IMG/VR virus record: IMGVR_UViG_2744054987_000003 | Location: 32,001-96,000 of that record | Strand: one strand, 5' to 3' | Source: a virus | Taxonomy: Duplodnaviria > Caudoviricetes | Length of the DNA stretch: 64,000 nt | Shown: positions 4,166-58,099 of the stretch, in pieces | How positions within the stretch are numbered: the first letter of the stretch is position 1 | How the letters are laid out: each line of letters starts with the position of its first letter | Notes under the pieces: generated by a model | Databases searched by the model: none | The model's input: the letters and a program-made list of their open reading frames with translations, nothing else | What the model was told of the DNA's origin: nothing | Program-made: the position numbers and the translations under genes

Positions 4166-4423
4166 CTAGCCGTTGAGACTGCCGGGCGTGCCCACGGGAA
4201 CTTCCTGACCGAGCCAGTTGCACGGACGCAGGGTGGCGAAGGCGGTGAACGCACACTTGAGTGCAGGATCAGCGGCGGCGCACTGCGGCTGGCCGGGACC
4301 ACCACAGGTCTGCTCCATGCCGGGCACGGCCTGCGCCGGAGCACCGGACACCGCAGCCGTCGCGCTCAGCAGCACCGCAGCGATAGAGATGACATACAAC
4401 GATTTCTTCACAGAGATGTTCAT
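4166..4423 (-). CDS. Small secreted Cys-containing protein (85 aa)
   Basis: Signal-peptide-like N-terminus ending AQA; four Cys; GGAGAG RBS. Confidence 0.7.
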   Translation of the reverse strand: MNISVKKSLYVISIAAVLLSATAAVSGAPAQAVPGMEQTCGGPGQPQCAAADPALKCAFTAFATLRPCNWLGQEVPVGTPGSLNG

Positions 4424-4499
4424 ATTAGTATCTCTCCTGTCATTGAGAAGTTATTAATTACTATTCACTTGTCGTTGTGCTGCAGTCAATACCCCGAAG

Positions 4500-23741: not shown

Positions 23742-23870
23742 AGGTTTGACCTATCCGTTGTATTGCAGAAATGTCAAGTTTGTTGGTCATATGCTAGCAC
23801 GATATTAGAGCTACATGCAATATAAGGAAAGAGGGATGCTGGATGACGGGAATGCAAGTCTAGCGCATGT

Positions 23871-52498: not shown

Positions 52499-52683
52499 GA
52501 GACCGCCTCCAGCAGTGCCGGATAGGTGGCCTTGCTGTGGACGTCCGCGCCGTAGCGCACATAGGCGTAGCTGTCGCTGACCGAGGTGATCACACCCTCC
52601 TCGCCCGGTGAGTCTGACGCGAGGTGCGGGGCACGATAGACCACCTTGTGACCGACTTGTTCACGGGCTTCATCGATGGTCAT
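52495..52683 (-). CDS. Small SH3-like hypothetical protein
   Basis: VVYR...EEGVITSV....YVRY. Confidence 0.65.
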   Translation of the reverse strand: MTIDEAREQVGHKVVYRAPHLASDSPGEEGVITSVSDSYAYVRYGADVHSKATYPALLEAVS

Positions 52684-53084
52684 GCCTGGACCTCACTGAC
52701 ATCGGTGTTCTCCTCATCGGTCGCATCAGCGGCTTGTGTTTGCAAGGCTTCGATCTTGGCGCGCAACGAATCCTGGGCCAGACGCATCTCGATGTGGGTC
52801 ATGGTGGATGCCAGCTCGTCGGCATACTTCCAGTAGGCCAGGAACAGGATCAGCATGTCGCCGATCATCGTGGCAGGAACCTTGCCCAGCCTGCTCTCTG
52901 TGGCAGCCAGTGCGATGCTGACGGCGGTGGCGGGCATCCCGCGCGGGTCGTCGGAGTCCAAACGGCGTTCTGCCTCGGAGGCCCACTGCTCCAGGTATTC
53001 CAGGAACTTCTTGCCGACCTCGCCTTCGTCTAGCAGCTCAGCACGCTGCTGCTGCCACAGTGCTTCGTCGCTGACCAGCATCAC
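52680..53084 (-). CDS. Hypothetical protein
   Basis: MLVSDEALW...; GTGA overlap. Confidence 0.65.
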   Translation of the reverse strand: MMLVSDEALWQQQRAELLDEGEVGKKFLEYLEQWASEAERRLDSDDPRGMPATAVSIALAATESRLGKVPATMIGDMLILFLAYWKYADELASTMTHIEMRLAQDSLRAKIEALQTQAADATDEENTDVSEVQA

Positions 53085-53341
53085 GCCACCGCGCCGTCGA
53101 GCGGGCGGAACCCGGCGAGGTCGATGCCCAACTCCTCGGCCAGGCGGGCGAAGATCGGGGTCTCGTCGTGGTGGATCTGGCGCAGCCGCTCGACCAATGC
53201 GCCGGGCGGACGTTCGGACTTGTACTGCGTGTGGCGTGGCTTGCGACTCGGGGCGGCGACCGCAACAGGTCCGGTGACGATGAGAAAGTTGATGGCAAAG
53301 AACGCAAGGCATCCCACCATCAAGACCAATGCGTCGTTCAT
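53081..53341 (-). CDS. Small membrane protein
   Basis: N-terminal TM helix. Confidence 0.6.
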   Translation of the reverse strand: MNDALVLMVGCLAFFAINFLIVTGPVAVAAPSRKPRHTQYKSERPPGALVERLRQIHHDETPIFARLAEELGIDLAGFRPLDGAVA

Positions 53342-53700
53342 GCTGAATCCTTAGTGTTGTAGGGCTCTCTGAGTTGTCGGCCACGGACGCTGACGCTGAT
53401 GCCCCAACGCCAGATGACGATGTAGAAACTGTGGTCGTCATAGAGCGGCTGCGACGTCGAGTGGCCCTCGAACCAGCCGTCGAACTGTCCGGTGAGATCG
53501 CCGAAGCTCATGTCGATACAGAACTGCGGTCCCTGGTGACTACCAGACTCGGATTCGCAGCAGCTCGCGAGATCGCCGTAGGTCACGCGCCAGCGTTTGG
53601 TCATCGTGTCGCGGTAGCGGTTGTACCAGGGCAGCTTGCCGTCCCACCAGTCGTCGTCGCGCAACGGCATGGTCGATAACCATTGACTGACCGGCTTCAC
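53338..53700 (-). CDS. Trp-rich hypothetical protein (120 aa)
   Basis: ORF track; overlaps. Confidence 0.65.
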   Translation of the reverse strand: MKPVSQWLSTMPLRDDDWWDGKLPWYNRYRDTMTKRWRVTYGDLASCCESESGSHQGPQFCIDMSFGDLTGQFDGWFEGHSTSQPLYDDHSFYIVIWRWGISVSVRGRQLREPYNTKDSA

Positions 53701-53848
53701 CGGCTGGCCCGACTTCCCAACGCCATGAGCGCAGCGCCGACGATCAGCGCAGTAAAGATGTGCGCCAGGTAGGCCACGGGATTGTTGCTCAGCCCGGCGG
53801 CGATGCCGAAGCCGATTCCGGCTGAAACAGCGACGAATCCGGCGGTGG

Positions 53849-54235
53849 TCATACGATCACTCCTGTTCCCTTGGCGCGCTTTCCGGGTGGCGGCTGACTT
53901 GACTGCTTGCTTTCGGGATGGAGGAGCACGCCGTACTGAGGGCAGTAGGCGCTGATGGCAGCGGTGATGATGACCGTTGACGCCTGCGCGTCGAGGGTCG
54001 AATGCACCATGCGCTGGACGATCTCGGCGATGGCGAAGCCCGAGTCGATGTTGCGGCACAGCTGGTGTCCCAACGTGATCGCGTATTCGCGGCTGCGGTA
54101 TCCGATCTTGTTGGAATCCAACGTCTGAAGGTAGGTCGTGTCGGCGCTGTTGTCTGCGTGCGCGTCAGCGGTCGGTGCGACCAGTGGCGACAGGAGCACT
54201 GCTCCGATCAATGCGAAGCCCGGAAGTCTAGTCAT
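53849..54235 (-). CDS. DUF732 family secreted protein
   Basis: Signal peptide AHAD; DTTYL...GHQLC...AAISAYCPQY. Confidence 0.8.
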   Translation of the reverse strand: MTRLPGFALIGAVLLSPLVAPTADAHADNSADTTYLQTLDSNKIGYRSREYAITLGHQLCRNIDSGFAIAEIVQRMVHSTLDAQASTVIITAAISAYCPQYGVLLHPESKQSSQPPPGKRAKGTGVIV

Positions 54236-54436
54236 CGTCCAGTGGATTCCCTTCAGTAGGGCAGGTGTCTCCAACGAGTGTATAGCACTTGACTAGAGGG
54301 CGCAAGTCTTGTCCTGGGTGATCCTTGGTCGACCGTCTTCCTGATTTTGGGCAGAGTTCTCGCAAGGATTAGGCAATAAGTCCAGGTCAATTCATGTTCA
54401 GTTGTTGTCTATCCAGACACCACACTCAGTACCTGG

Positions 54437-54582
54437 CCCGCCGAAGGCGGGATGAAAGTACACCGAAGTGAGGTGTACTTTCCGGCCGAAGGCCGGTGCC
54501 CCCCAAACCCCCCACGACCGAAAATTTCGGCCGCCGAGGCGGGCGGCAAACCCCTCTAGCCCCTTGTCTTCGAGAGACAAGG
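54437..54582. other. Cluster of six short hairpins, two with GAA triloops
   Basis: CCCGCC-GAA-GGCGGG, GAAAGTACACC-N7-GGTGTACTTTC, CCGGCC-GAA-GGCCGG, CCGAAA-A-TTTCGG, CCGCC-GA-GGCGG, CCTTGTCT-N5-AGACAAGG. Confidence 0.85.
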
Positions 54583-54734
54583 AGCTTTCCCGTTGCCACC
54601 CAGGTCGTAGTACTCCGAACAAGGATGGTCGCTGCCCGCGACAGCGAGAGTTACGCGGGGATGTGTCCTTTCGTTGGGAAGCGAGGGGTGGAGCAGGACT
54701 CAGCTTGTTTACGGCATCTGCGGCATGTCTACGG

Positions 54735-54774
54735 CGTCATTACGTCATTGCGTCATTACGTCATTGCGTCATTA
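54735..54774. repeat. Tandem 8-bp repeat CGTCATT(A/G) x5
   Basis: Read directly; the final base alternates A, G, A, G, A. Confidence 0.95.
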
Positions 54775-54871
54775 CGTTTTGCCCGAAGGCCATCTCTGTG
54801 CCTGGCACACCTATACACCAGGAGTTACTTTGGGTACTGCCTCGACAGCTGATGCACTGGAGGCTTCGGAC

Positions 54872-54901
54872 TTGACATCATCAGTGGATGTTCAGTACCG
54901 T
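54872..54901 (+). promoter_or_regulatory. SigA-like promoter TTGACA-N18-TACCGT
   Basis: Consensus -35 and TANNNT -10. Confidence 0.55.
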
Positions 54902-54923
54902 TACGACCAGCGTGCTAGCTTGT

Positions 54924-54960
54924 CGAAGGCCCCTGTAGGAGAAATCCTCGGGGGCCTTCG
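54924..54960 (+). terminator. GC-rich stem-loop, possible terminator or attenuator
   Basis: CGAAGGCCCC...AGGA-GAAA-TCCT...GGGGCCTTCG followed by TCATTT. Confidence 0.55.
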
Positions 54961-55026
54961 TCATTTCTAGCACTCCTCGCGCCGGAACGCAACGCTTGCC
55001 AAGTGTGAGGCATTTGCGTGTAGACT

Positions 55027-56892
55027 ATGTCTAACATGCGACTAGTTGATGACCTCGAAGAAGCTCTCACTGACTACCGGCCCGACGTTCTGTCCCGCTG
55101 TGTTGTCGTGGAGGCATCACCGGAATGGCCAGGCCAGCTGGTGTTCCAGCCATTCGTTGGCGAACAGGACTTCCTGGCGCGCTACAGCGACTGGATCAGC
55201 AGGCACCTCACCCTCAACGAGTTGTACAACCTCACAGCGTTCATCGAACTGCTGGAGGCCGACAGCCACACCGTGTTCTGTGCGCCGAGTGCACAACCAA
55301 TCCTTGATGACTACGCCCGGCTGAGTGAGCCGCTGACGATCGAAGGCTATAGTCTGCGTCCCTTCCAGACCTTCGGCCTCAATCAGGCGTTGGAGCGGGC
55401 GCTGAGCGGCAAAACAACCGGCGACAGGATGTTCTTCTGGAACTGGTCAGCCGGAGCTGGAAAGAGCCATGTCAGCGGAGCCGGTGCCAAAGCGCTGTTT
55501 GACCGCAACGCCATCGACTTGGTCATTGCCTGCACGCTGTCGAAACTCAAAATCAACTTGAGTAGGACGTACTGCGACGACGCCAAACTTAAGTCCGTGG
55601 TCAACGACCATGTGCGTCCAAACATTCGGCGTGAGGGCTATCTCAACCCAGACACGCAGGTGTTCGTGATGAACTATGAGAAGCTGTGGGTTGATGAGGA
55701 TGCACTGCGTGAGGTGACTGCGAATAAGCGAGTGCTGTTCATCGCAGATGAGGCGCATCGTTTGATCTCCGATGGTGCACACAACAAGGCGCGCAAAGCT
55801 CTTGACCGTCTCACCAAAGACTGCCACGCCATCGTCTGGCCGATGAGCGCCACCGTAGTCGACGGTAACCCATTGCGGTTCCGTGACGTGTTTTCGCTCG
55901 ACGGCAGGCCCGCCAAGAACCCGTTGGGCACCAAGAAAGACTTCACCGCACGCTACGCACACGAGGTGCGCGAGATCCCCGTCAAGACACGCAGCGGTGG
56001 ACGGTATACCTTCACCGCCTACGACTGGAACCTGGCCGCACTCCAGGACATCCGGCATCGTGTTGCTGACCGCACGATGACCGCGCGCAAGACCGACCCT
56101 GGCATTCGTGAGCAGTTCAAGGGCATTGAGTGCATTCCAGTCATGGTGCAGCCCACCGCGCAGCAGCAGAAACTGTTCGACGTCATCACCGATCTTGCCA
56201 AGGAGGCCCAGCAGCGCGAGGAGGCGCTGACGCAGCACTACCTGGCATTGCGGATCGCGGCTACCAACCCCGGCGCGTTGTGGTTCGGTACCGGCCAGCT
56301 CGTCATCGACATCTCAGAGCGCGTGCCGGATCTGCTCGACGCCAAGCACTCGGCCAAGATCGAGGTGCTCAACGGGATGTTGGAGTCCATTCGCGAAGCG
56401 CAGGACAAGGCCGTGCTGTTCTGTCACTGGACGAATCTCGGGCTGCTGCCGCTCGTCAAGCACATCGAAGTGCCTCACGTGCTGCACTACGGCACCGGTC
56501 AGACCACGTCGGAATCACAGGCCGCGCAGGACCGGTTCAAAAGCGATCCCGACATCACGCTGTTCGCCAGCTCTGATGCGGGCACCTACGGACTGAATCT
56601 TCAGTGCGCGCGTTACGTCATCAGCGCCGACCCCACCTACTCCTACGACGCGCTGGCGCAACGCAACGCCCGCATCGATCGCGTCGACAGTCACCTCGAC
56701 GGCTTGACAGCCTACGTGCTCATCACCGAGGGCAGCGTCGAGGAGCGTGTATGGCAGGTCTGCAACGAACGCCGGATGCTTGCCGCTGCGGTCCAGGGCA
56801 CTTCCGAAGAACTCACCTACGGTGACGGCGAAGTGTCCAAGTCAGAGATGAACGACCTGAGTTGGTTGGTGTTCGGAGACAAGGAGAAGTAG
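55027..56892 (+). CDS. SNF2-like superfamily 2 helicase
   Basis: AGAGKS, DEAH, SAT, GLNLQ and QRNARIDR motifs. Confidence 0.9.
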   Translation: MSNMRLVDDLEEALTDYRPDVLSRCVVVEASPEWPGQLVFQPFVGEQDFLARYSDWISRHLTLNELYNLTAFIELLEADSHTVFCAPSAQPILDDYARLSEPLTIEGYSLRPFQTFGLNQALERALSGKTTGDRMFFWNWSAGAGKSHVSGAGAKALFDRNAIDLVIACTLSKLKINLSRTYCDDAKLKSVVNDHVRPNIRREGYLNPDTQVFVMNYEKLWVDEDALREVTANKRVLFIADEAHRLISDGAHNKARKALDRLTKDCHAIVWPMSATVVDGNPLRFRDVFSLDGRPAKNPLGTKKDFTARYAHEVREIPVKTRSGGRYTFTAYDWNLAALQDIRHRVADRTMTARKTDPGIREQFKGIECIPVMVQPTAQQQKLFDVITDLAKEAQQREEALTQHYLALRIAATNPGALWFGTGQLVIDISERVPDLLDAKHSAKIEVLNGMLESIREAQDKAVLFCHWTNLGLLPLVKHIEVPHVLHYGTGQTTSESQAAQDRFKSDPDITLFASSDAGTYGLNLQCARYVISADPTYSYDALAQRNARIDRVDSHLDGLTAYVLITEGSVEERVWQVCNERRMLAAAVQGTSEELTYGDGEVSKSEMNDLSWLVFGDKEK

Positions 56893-57138
56893 ATGCTCGA
56901 CGACGAATGGATTTGGCCATTGCTGGCAGCGGTCGGCTCGCTGCTTCTCGTTGCGCTGATCTGCCTTCCGGTGCGTCAGGTCTACCATCACTACGAGGTC
57001 AAGCAGTGCCACCAGTTCTCGGAGCAGGCTGGCTACACAACGAAGTTCGTGGACTACAACTTCCTCAGCTGGGACTGCCTGGCACAGACTAAGACCGGTA
57101 AGTGGGTCGGCTACGAAAAGCTGCGCGACGTTGACTAG
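56893..57138 (+). CDS. Small membrane protein (81 aa)
   Basis: TM helix; AAGGAG RBS. Confidence 0.7.
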   Translation: MLDDEWIWPLLAAVGSLLLVALICLPVRQVYHHYEVKQCHQFSEQAGYTTKFVDYNFLSWDCLAQTKTGKWVGYEKLRDVD

Positions 57139-57479
57139 CTTTCACGCCGAGCGATCTGCTGGTCGTAGATGTCGACGATTTCACGCAGCTGAGCAACAGG
57201 GTCGTCTGTATCGAGGATCTCCTGGTATGCCTGGCGGCTCTTCTTGGCGTGCTGAAGCCAGCCTCTCTCTACCCACTTCAGTGCAGCATCAGGCGTAAGC
57301 GACATACCGGCTCCCACCACAGCACCGTCTTCGCCGCGCTCGGGCCAGAACAACTGCGGCGCACCTTGTTCGTCAAGAAACATGATCCAGCGCCGACCGT
57401 CGTCGGTCTCACCCTCGATGAGTCCAGCTGATCCGGTCTCGGCAGGGTTCTTGTAACGCTCAATGCTGATTCGCTTCAT
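57135..57479 (-). CDS. Hypothetical protein
   Basis: GAAAGG RBS; MKRISIERY...; GGGACA-N17-TATACT upstream. Confidence 0.65.
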   Translation of the reverse strand: MKRISIERYKNPAETGSAGLIEGETDDGRRWIMFLDEQGAPQLFWPERGEDGAVVGAGMSLTPDAALKWVERGWLQHAKKSRQAYQEILDTDDPVAQLREIVDIYDQQIARRES

Positions 57480-57543
57480 GGGAATGCCTTTCGGTGAGGG
57501 GATAAATCCGCGCCCCACCTGGGCACTCATCAAGTATAGCAGC

Positions 57544-57747
57544 TCAGGCAGACAGTGTCCCATCACCGGCAGTCGCACGCTCGATGGTCTGCCACGAGTA
57601 CTCCTCGTGCCACCCGTAGAAGGGATGCTCACGGTCAGAGATGGTCGCTGTAGCGAAGTCGTTTCGAGAGCCACTGATTTGCACCCGAAAACCGTTGACG
57701 AGCAGTCCACGGGAGTTCGCCTCTTGCATGATTGCGCCTTTGTTCAT
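57544..57747 (-). CDS. Hypothetical protein, probably leaderless (67 aa)
   Basis: ATG 6 nt after TATAGT. Confidence 0.65.
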   Translation of the reverse strand: MNKGAIMQEANSRGLLVNGFRVQISGSRNDFATATISDREHPFYGWHEEYSWQTIERATAGDGTLSA

Positions 57748-57753
57748 ACCTAA

Positions 57754-57783
57754 ACTATATCATGAGTGTCTAGGTAATGTCTA
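57754..57783 (-). promoter_or_regulatory. TAGACA-N5-TAGACA-N7-TATAGT promoter
   Basis: Third copy of the double-TAGACA architecture. Confidence 0.75.
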
Positions 57784-57784
57784 A

Positions 57785-57858
57785 TGGCTGGGGTGTCAGG
57801 ACTCGAACCTGAATCGCCCGGACCAAAACCGGGAATCATACCTTTAGACCACGCCCCA
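57785..57858 (-). tRNA. tRNA-Gln (UUG), CCA encoded
   Basis: Anticodon arm CCCGG-TT-TTG-GT-CCGGG; GGTTCGAGTCC; ends GCCA. Confidence 0.93.
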
Positions 57859-57863
57859 GGGAG

Positions 57864-57934
57864 CTGGGATGCAAGGACTCGAACCTCGATTACCGGAACC
57901 AGACTCCGGTGTCTTGCCTTTAGACGACATCCCA
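57864..57934 (-). tRNA. tRNA-Gln (CUG)
   Basis: CCGGA-GT-CTG-GT-TCCGG; GGTTCGAGTCC. Confidence 0.92.
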
Positions 57935-57938
57935 TCGG

Positions 57939-58020
57939 TGCCAGCAGCAGGAGTCGAACCTGCACAGCCGAAGCCACGGAGTTACAGTCCGCTTCCCTCG
58001 CCACATGGGGGTGTGCTGGC
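57939..58020 (-). tRNA. tRNA-Tyr (GUA), long variable arm
   Basis: GCGGA-CT-GTA-AC-TCCGT; GGCTTCGGCT variable arm; GGTTCGACTCC. Confidence 0.88.
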
Positions 58021-58024
58021 TTCG

Positions 58025-58099
58025 TCGGGGTGACAGGATTTGAACCTGCGGCCTTCCGCTCCCAAAGCGGATGCTCTTGCCAAGCTGAGCTACACCCCG
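58025..58099 (-). tRNA. tRNA-Pro (UGG)
   Basis: CGGGGTGTAGCTCAG...TCCGC-TT-TGG-GA-GCGGA...GGTTCAAATCC. Confidence 0.95.

Follow-up and report, generated by a model that had tools for sequence, protein, structure and literature searches.

A Conserved Single-Copy Hairpin Element in the Largest Gene-Free Gap of a Bixzunavirus-like Phage Genome: A Candidate Early Control or Noncoding RNA Module

Introduction

What is the role of the largest gene-free gap in the phage genome recorded as IMGVR_UViG_2744054987_000003? The window analyzed here is 64,000 bp long and comprises bases 32001–96000 of this 147.5-kb (147,517-bp) virus record, which is 96% complete. The gap lies at window positions 54235–55035, between leftward genes and a rightward helicase gene. 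An initial annotation had proposed a replication origin with iterons and a priming site, or alternatively a packaging site or a noncoding RNA (ncRNA). Herein, we show that the gap has no coding signal and that it contains a single-copy element whose hairpins are real and conserved with compensatory changes and whose position is fixed relative to the early operon. We tentatively read this element as a transcribed early control or ncRNA module. Below, WIN denotes the phage of the window, L-numbers denote loci of its relatives, and X1–X4 are public runs, which were compared as contigs and leave parts of the gap uncovered in X2–X4.

Results and Discussion

A Hairpin Block Conserved in Relatives

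The element centers on a hairpin block at about 54374–54665, which by sequence comparison has homologues at the same place in uncultivated relatives. Its parts, none of them assigned to a strand, are as follows.

54437–54451, hairpin A, CCCGCC GAA GGCGGG
54454–54482, hairpin 2, an 11-bp perfect stem with a 7-nt loop
54482–54496, hairpin B, CCGGCC GAA GGCCGG
54515–54547, two overlapping GC-rich hairpins (54515–54533 and 54530–54547) around GAAAATTTCGGCCG, a motif common to L030
54558–54586, hairpin 6, AGCCCCTTGTCT TCGAG AGACAAGGAGCT, the most widely conserved piece
54600–54658, tail of the conserved block, CCAGGTCGT, hairpin 7 and then AGAGTTACGCGG, which aligns with L023 and L030
54629–54647, hairpin 7, TCGCTG CCCGCGA CAGCGA

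Similarity searches with single sequences recovered little of this block. The gap had no blastn match in 50,697 phage records, and blastn and nhmmer searches of the relatives returned the 15-mer C-tract described below and a terminator fragment only. A covariance model was then built on the window's hairpins alone and run on the relatives. It matched L023 over its full length (E = 0.0025), L030 and L022 in pieces (E = 0.038 and E = 0.04, respectively) and others more weakly. In the homologous loci the order of parts is kept: hairpin A, hairpin B, GAAAATTTC(C)GGCCG, ...TCT with hairpin 6, CCAGGTCGT, hairpin 7, AGAGTTAC.CGG, a repeat zone, TAGACT, 9 nt and the helicase ATG.

The stems themselves change from phage to phage. 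Hairpin A is built on CCCGCC/GGCGGG in WIN, on CCGTGCCC/GGGCACGG with a GAA loop in L023 and on CCGCCGC/GCGGCGG with a TTC loop in L030. Hairpin B has CCGGCC stems in WIN and reads CCGGCCC GAA GGGCCGG in L023 and CCGGGGGCC TAC GGCCCCCGG in L030. Across 10 phages, hairpin 6 keeps its base, RGCC(C/T)C...GRGGCT, under at least four different apical stems that changed in a compensatory manner, and RNAalifold on a MAFFT alignment found double changes in five of its eight pairs. Compensatory base-pair changes were thus found in hairpins A, B, 6 and 7. These stems differ and yet stay complementary, which shows selection for intrastrand pairing. Hairpin 2 is absent from L023, which shares the GAGGTG of its 3′ arm.

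Conservation in relatives had been named in the initial annotation as a check on the locus, and it bears the locus out: the block is conserved, at the same place, with co-varying stems. The six packed hairpins described there, with two C-GAA-G triloops flanking an 11-bp stem, were all present, together with the further one at 54629–54647. The weight given to the C-GAA-G loop did not survive: in L030 the loops of the corresponding hairpins are TTC and TAC, so what matters in these hairpins cannot be the unusual stability that C-GAA-G confers.

Within the genome, 264 perfect hairpins were counted (stem at least 6, loop 3–7). The densest 150-bp window is the cluster described here with five, and the runner-up holds three. 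Four of the 55 triloop hairpins genome-wide have a GAA or TTC loop; the two with GAA are both in the gap and GC-rich, and the two with TTC lie inside coding regions. Folding of 54420–54975 gave z = −5.3 for the + strand and z = −6.7 for the − strand, with 0 of 100 shuffles as good. When 977 non-overlapping 150-nt windows were ranked by stability (+ strand only, minimum free energy regressed on GC), the window at 54437 came 9th and that at 54887 came 2nd. The hairpin cluster is unusual, yet it is not the single most stable stretch of the genome. A group of several top-stability 150-nt windows (z to −3.4 against the GC trend) also lies just left of the window, at G000:C1:28987-31837.

Position was compared in the relatives with a gene-called left flank (L002, L004, L006, L008 and L009). 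In all of these the homologous element lies directly upstream of a conserved first leftward gene of 120–140 aa, and in L006 and L008 this gene has tblastn homology to the Tad4 domain of the protein encoded at window 52680–53441. In L008, two other − strand genes stand between the element and the helicase, which indicates that the element travels with the early operon and not with the helicase.

A Gap without Coding Signal

54235–55035, no strand, whole noncoding gap between the DUF732 gene (ATG 54234) and the SNF2-type helicase gene (likely ATG 55036)

According to a crude gene call based on GC content at third codon positions (GC3), window 54275–55026 is the largest gap of the whole 147,517-bp genome. 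It measures 752 bp, or about 790–800 bp if the left gene starts at the more likely ATG 54234, so the roughly 750 bp that had been noted as free of a convincing gene stand. The long open reading frames (ORFs) inside the gap (54468–54875, 54496–54852 and 54674–54970) have flat GC3, and L020, a 99.5%-identical variant, carries 3-nt and 8-nt indels within them. We give hardly any credence to the reading in which the gap encodes one or more small proteins. Its best example is a 46-codon ORF at 54830–54970, with an AGGAG ribosome-binding site (RBS) 5 nt ahead of a TTG start. This ORF was rejected as a gene because its GC3 is 0.53 against about 0.8 in real genes, tblastn found a homologue in none of the relatives, and a 1-nt insertion shifts its frame in strain X2. 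With GC3 flat or low, no homologues and broken frames, nothing in the gap behaves as protein-coding sequence.

The gap is also the only divergent strand switch of the window, as had been claimed. The − strand carries nearly all genes of the genome, and on the + strand of the window coding is supported for the helicase cassette at 55027–57138 alone (the helicase and an 81-codon membrane-protein ORF). A PHROG family was matched by the helicase and by none of the 10 further ORF candidates on that strand. The helicase (55027–56892) belongs by sequence to the SNF2 family of ATPases. Its identity is 57% with the product annotated 'DNA helicase' in about 200 mycobacteriophages of cluster C1 (Bixzunavirus) and 44–67% with helicases on uncultivated viral and metagenome contigs. 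The source phage is a relative of the cluster C mycobacteriophages (Bixzunavirus-like).

A C-Tract and a Nearly Invariant Counterpart in Cluster C1

54499–54513, + strand, C-tract CCCCCCAAACCCCCC (15-mer), on the helicase-sense strand of the gap upstream of the helicase

The C-tract 15-mer is identical, at the same locus and on the same strand, in WIN, cluster C1 (Caravan; the C1-like viral contig L007/L036), Tonenili and L044, and this holds in L044 although its helicase is only 44% identical. L040 has a 13-mer core. The tract is single-copy in the WIN genome and its 13-mer core is single-copy in four of five other whole genomes searched, with a chance expectation of about 0.02 per genome as calculated from base composition. 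It is absent from the L004 genome, L023 and L030; missing from the latter two, it does not belong to the block in every phage. Its length varies as well, the L020 copy being three C longer (C9). A tract that is identical, strand-specific and single-copy across phages with helicases 44–58% identical shows a pattern typical of the seed of a small RNA (sRNA).

The cluster C1 equivalent is a 432-bp gap between the Tad4-like gp181 and gp180, matched in 202 records; no annotated feature was present in it among the 12 shown of these 202. When 432-bp segments were compared across the 202 records, at least 99% identity was found in 191 for the gap, 132 for gp181 and 200 for the helicase segment. Between Caravan and the divergent Tonenili, identity is 88.9% for the helicase segment, 91.9% for gp181 and 95.6% for the gap. 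Caravan and Tonenili differ by one substitution in a 324-column core of the gap, which extends from a TATAG promoter zone through a hairpin and the C-tract to a small downstream promoter. Either very strong constraint or recent exchange would account for this core. The WIN lineage has the same conserved-core pattern, more weakly. Close-strain contigs (run X2 holds more than one strain) showed one difference in 54362–54524 and one in 54555–54659, with 13 in 54274–54337 and 11 in 54806–55026.

A Repeat Zone Constant in Place but Not in Sequence

54703–54777, no strand, repeat zone, 5.4 tandem CGTCATT(A/G) units preceded by degenerate TACGGCAT-like copies

The initial annotation had listed five tandem CGTCATT(A/G) repeats with degenerate CGGCAT copies upstream, and had taken them for iterons. 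The repeats are there: Tandem Repeats Finder placed them at 54735–54777 with period 8 and 5.4 copies, or with period 16 and 2.8 copies at 100% match, and the degenerate copies TACGGCAT, TGCGGCAT and TACGGCGT lie just upstream (54703–54738). CGTCATT occurs 19 times in the genome, 6 times in the gap and 13 elsewhere, with about 13.5 expected genome-wide; the near-chance count outside the gap makes the motif local and not dispersed.

Their reading as iterons was not supported, as the repeats are different in every relative and their copy number varies between near-identical strains. L020 and the main contig of run X1 have one 8-bp unit fewer, and in a close strain of run X3 the segment 54660–54770 is replaced by 71 other letters. 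The same spot is taken by three copies of a 14-bp repeat in L003, by repeats of 11 and 13 bp in L023, by a GT-rich microsatellite in L030 and by a simple T/G-rich repeat of period 4 or 7 in L025. A repeat zone is therefore a constant feature whose sequence is not constant, and it is the least conserved part of the gap. Such inconstancy fits poorly with iterons that a conserved initiator recognizes and better with slippage-prone DNA or an operator or spacer zone. In L030, an alternating GC/GCGC-rich tract (L030:920-965) and a long GT-rich microsatellite (L030:1310-1400) flank the conserved block.

Predicted Transcription Signals

Promoter and terminator sites in this section are consensus matches only. 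The following were recognized in and around the gap.

54279–54300, − strand, candidate proximal promoter of the leftward operon by consensus resemblance, TAGTCAAgTGcTATACA, with TGcTATACA at 54279–54287
54872–54970, + strand, predicted promoter-plus-terminator unit, TTGACA at 54872–77, an 18-nt spacer, TACCGT at 54896–901, a hairpin at 54921–54963 and the tail GTCATTTCT
54996–55038, + strand, predicted helicase promoter of leaderless type, TTGCCA, a 19-nt spacer, TAGACT (55021–26), 9 nt and ATG 55036

A promoter and terminator tool run on 53500–55500 reported 0 promoters and one weak terminator-like site, no more than in shuffles. The candidate at 54279–54300 resembles other − strand promoters of the form TAGACA-N5-TAGACAC-N4-6-TATAnT, and a close strain is hypervariable just upstream of it, at 54296–54337. 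The dispersed promoter-like motif TAGACA-N5-TAGACAC-N4-6-TATA(C/G)T was seen upstream of − strand genes at window positions 57772, 51608, 49568 and 7688 and at further sites left of the window; its doubled TAGACA box may be an operator too.

On the + strand, units comparable to that at 54872–54970 were found in L002, L003, L004 and L044. WIN, L003, L004, L038 and L044 have U-tailed hairpins 55–80 nt ahead of the helicase start; in cluster C1 the distance is about 450 nt, with gene 180 in between. A SigA-like promoter match precedes the U-tailed hairpin by 60–90 nt in 5 of 11 regions. These U-tailed hairpins with upstream promoter matches make rightward transcription inside the gap plausible. 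A scan of viral contigs for the terminator motif brought up phages that were mostly unrelated, which makes it a generic terminator.

TAGACT stands 6–9 nt before the helicase start in seven phages, and TAGTAT or TATAAT takes its place in two more, which suggests that the helicase mRNA is leaderless and begins at ATG 55036. The helicase probably starts there rather than at 55027, as homology begins at residue 6–7, the −10-like TAGACT ends at 55026, and strain X2 has GTG at 55027.

A Possible Early Control or ncRNA Module

We rank first, at somewhat less than even weight, the reading that the gap element is a transcribed early control or ncRNA module. This ranking follows from its fixed place upstream of the early operon (L008 included), the flanking promoter- and terminator-like sites and the precedent of the Pleft RNA described below. 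The co-varying stems, the C-tract, the nearly invariant and unannotated C1 core, the plausible rightward transcription and the missing coding signal also speak for it. The gap would be the control region heading an early leftward operon, which comprises the Tad4-like anti-defense gene and then the replication genes (DnaC-like, DnaB-like, primase, SSB and Pol III alpha). The hairpin block at about 54374–54665 would most likely be transcribed as a structured ncRNA or leader, arising from a back-to-back promoter zone beside the early operon. The + strand terminator at 54921–54968 would keep transcription out of the helicase, ahead of its leaderless promoter, and the 8-bp array would act as a fast-evolving operator or spacer zone between the conserved core and the promoter–terminator unit. 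Here we infer the transcription of the block, the strand used, the ends of the RNA and its action.

Several observations weigh against this module. No convincing promoter for the hairpin block was found on either strand, where SigA-like matches came easily for the other units; weak + strand candidates at the left edge of the block were read by eye in WIN, C1 and L044. The small promoter–terminator unit could alone explain the terminator. The element matches no Rfam family: searches of the gap, six relatives and L023 at E ≤ 10 gave nothing relevant, the best hit (E = 0.3) lying outside the element and far below the gathering score, and the only matches in the relatives were to tRNA and tmRNA elsewhere. 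Strand bias is inconsistent. Local folding energies (kcal/mol) are −107.5 on the − strand and −93.5 on the + strand in WIN, −118.3 on the + strand and −109.6 on the − strand in L030, and about equal in L023; taken by itself, hairpin 6 folds more stably on the − strand in 7 of 10 phages, four of those seven being one lineage. The main stems are perfect Watson–Crick inverted repeats with few G-U pairs, and given this symmetry on both strands an element acting at the DNA level fits as well, with RNA compatible too. The option of recent exchange for the C1 core counts on the same side. The ncRNA that the initial annotation had listed as an alternative is still viable on these data.

The nearest precedent is in cluster A mycobacteriophages. 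From their early promoter Pleft, these phages (L5, D29 and StarStuff) make an RNA of about 500 nt that is abundant and stable, lacks a conserved ORF and precedes the first early genes (PMC5712189). Like the WIN element, it occupies several hundred bases without a conserved ORF and heads the early lytic genes in an actinobacteriophage. The two differ in that blastn found no sequence similarity (50,697 phage records), that the WIN phage is a myovirus of cluster C-like type, and that transcription was shown for Pleft and is inferred for WIN.

A second comparison is with the 6C sRNA of Actinobacteria (Rfam RF01066), with C-rich loops. It shares with the WIN element C-rich single-stranded motifs between strong hairpins and an actinobacterial setting; unlike it, WIN has a different architecture and no Rfam match at E ≤ 10.

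A bolder form of the ncRNA reading, which we consider doubtful, is that the element represents a new family of early phage ncRNAs common to Bixzunavirus-like actinophages and set in a counter-defense island heading the early operon. Such an RNA would be about 190 nt long if it ended at hairpin 6 and about 560 nt if it ended at the terminator, and it would act on host defense or translation through the invariant C-rich single-stranded tract. The counter-defense context consists of the Tad4-like Thoeris inhibitor beside the element and a CRISPR-like array that abuts the block in one relative. A transcription-primed, CSB-II-like origin is an equally bold alternative.

The CRISPR-like array is in L023, whose helicase is 64% identical. 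L023:1-260 holds at least four identical 36-nt repeats with unique 36–40-nt spacers, at a period of 73–76. The array directly abuts hairpin A of the conserved block and is cut by the contig end. No Rfam CRISPR-DR family matched the repeat, and a search of viral and genome contigs gave no exact match to it; on the reverse strand it starts with GT and ends with ATTGCAGC, which hints at leftward transcription.

Replication Origin and Other Readings

54338–54417, no strand, AT-rich segment with 42.5% GC where the genome has about 61%, ranked about 15th of the distinct 80-bp AT-rich windows

A replication origin, as the initial annotation had it, is a serious rival, weighted somewhat below the ncRNA module. 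It would consist of a palindromic hairpin-extruding block, the AT-rich flank and the repeat zone, and flanking promoters may activate it; one version would use R-loop priming at the tract reading GGGGGGTTTGGGGGG on the − strand. The part of the earlier claim that stands is a conserved, single-copy cis element located 6–15 kb to the right of the genes for a DnaC-like loader, a DnaB-like helicase, primase, SSB and Pol III alpha, with a core nearly invariant in cluster C1. The stems, perfect on both strands without a consistent strand bias, suit an origin, as do the adjoining AT-rich segment, the direct repeats beside the block in WIN, L003 and L023, and the lack of a recognized promoter for the block itself. 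The iteron, GAA-loop and N4 arguments fell away, and with them went the particular backing put forward for an origin, although an origin as such is not refuted. An iteron origin would be expected to combine a direct-repeat array, which is present (5.4 × 8 bp and three degenerate copies), with conserved repeats or a nearby co-varying initiator, neither of which was found; the repeats are strain-polymorphic, and those of L030 and L025 are GT- or T-rich simple repeats, which are not iteron-like. No initiator gene was recognized by Pfam and PHROG scans of the neighboring genes, and the adjoining helicase is of the SNF2 type, not a known origin binder. With one mismatch allowed, the DnaA-box consensus had three matches in the window, fewer than in shuffles and none in the gap. 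The AT-rich segment ranks only about 15th in the genome. Cumulative GC skew, one of the checks that had been proposed, rises monotonically with no turn at the locus, which is weak evidence as skew follows transcription in a one-strand genome. Finally, the element tracks the start of the early operon, as in L008. The ncRNA and origin readings are not mutually exclusive, since transcription-activated origins exist.

Known origins and hairpin promoters resemble the locus in part. The G4 origin and the N4 hairpin promoters share with it closely packed short hairpins and 3-nt loops; WIN differs as a relative of double-stranded DNA myoviruses with no giant RNA polymerase and a loop sequence that is not conserved. 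The analogy to the N4 virion RNA polymerase promoters, drawn in the initial annotation, fails because the longest open frame has 1481 codons, so no giant virion RNA polymerase is encoded; a PF00940 search found nothing, and its control gave no signal either. Iteron origins (lambda ori, the P4 ori octamers and iteron plasmids) also have clustered short repeats by an AT-rich stretch, in single copy near replication genes, whereas the 8-bp repeats of WIN are strain-variable, different in every relative and outside any initiator gene, none being identified. R-loop or G-tract origins (mitochondrial CSB II, ColE1 and T4 oriF) are matched by a conserved G6T3G6 on the − strand, by length polymorphism and by the location between promoters and next to hairpins. 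The WIN tract differs in having only two G-runs and in being absent from L023, L030 and the L004 genome.

Control of transcription at the DNA level, with the repeats as operators, the hairpins as a bidirectional wall and the G/C tract as an upstream promoter element, is improbable. The hairpin wall would stop stray transcription between the late/helicase side and the early operon. Such traffic is conceivable, as the − strand gene at 57135–57710 converges on the helicase cassette with no terminator between, and antisense transcription could reach the gap. In C1, gp181 has a leaderless-type TATAGG-N7-ATG start, and the hairpin and C-tract occupy about −35 to −60 relative to it; on an unrelated contig of run X1, an 8-mer array similar to that of WIN runs directly up to an RBS and ATG. 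However, the C-tract is not at a fixed distance from the first leftward gene, with about 66 nt in C1, 169 nt in L044 and 265 nt in WIN. The hairpins have no U-tails on the − strand, the scan gave one terminator-like site, no more than shuffles, and CGTCATT is not used elsewhere in the genome. That the element is a pac site for headful packaging, whose octamer array the small terminase would bind, is very unlikely. A single-copy, strand-specific element with short tandem repeats would suit one, and the P1 pac site, which uses clustered hexamers, counts in its favor; against it, no terminase gene was found nearby in the window and the repeats are hypervariable.

Significance

The element is new to Rfam and unannotated in the C1 records examined, and is either a phage early noncoding element or an origin. 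Papers retrieved on cluster C/Bxz1 transcription, RNA-seq, origins and intergenic elements contained no description of the region, and the portion of PMC3029335 considered is silent on it. More than 200 sequenced cluster C mycobacteriophages and uncultivated relatives thus carry an unannotated noncoding element here, part of which is more conserved than the flanking genes. Were the locus an origin, no earlier one would have been mapped in this large group of myoviruses, and knowing it would help to engineer them. If it encoded an early ncRNA beside an anti-defense gene, it would add an RNA component to a takeover or counter-defense program. Either reading is directly testable in M. smegmatis with existing phages.

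Neighboring Genes and Minor Observations

Leftward of the gap, a DUF732 secreted protein, small membrane proteins and a Tad4 (Thoeris inhibitor) domain protein are encoded in this order. The last is a 253-aa protein (window 52680–53441, − strand) with a C-terminal Tad4 (type I Thoeris inhibitor) domain. A homologue of this gene opens the leftward operon of L006 and L008 by tblastn, and judged from N-terminal sequences the first gene is Tad4-like in L004, L005, L009 and cluster C1 (gp181) too; in WIN, three extra genes, DUF732 among them, precede the Tad4-domain gene. Four tRNAs (57785–58099), the only ones found by ARAGORN, and tail genes follow the helicase on its right. Across the genome, AT content over 80 bp peaks outside the gap, at window 4386–4465 and 23745–23824 (31% and 36% GC), which are alternative places for an unwinding element. 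Record G000 is labeled 'provirus' in its collection; according to PMC3029335, its cluster C relatives are without an integrase. In L030 and L009, the helicase ORF encodes about 975 aa against the usual 620 or so (L030:1540-4464 and L009:2486-5416), with homology to the WIN protein starting only 133–147 residues further in; an insertion, for example of an intein, is suggested.

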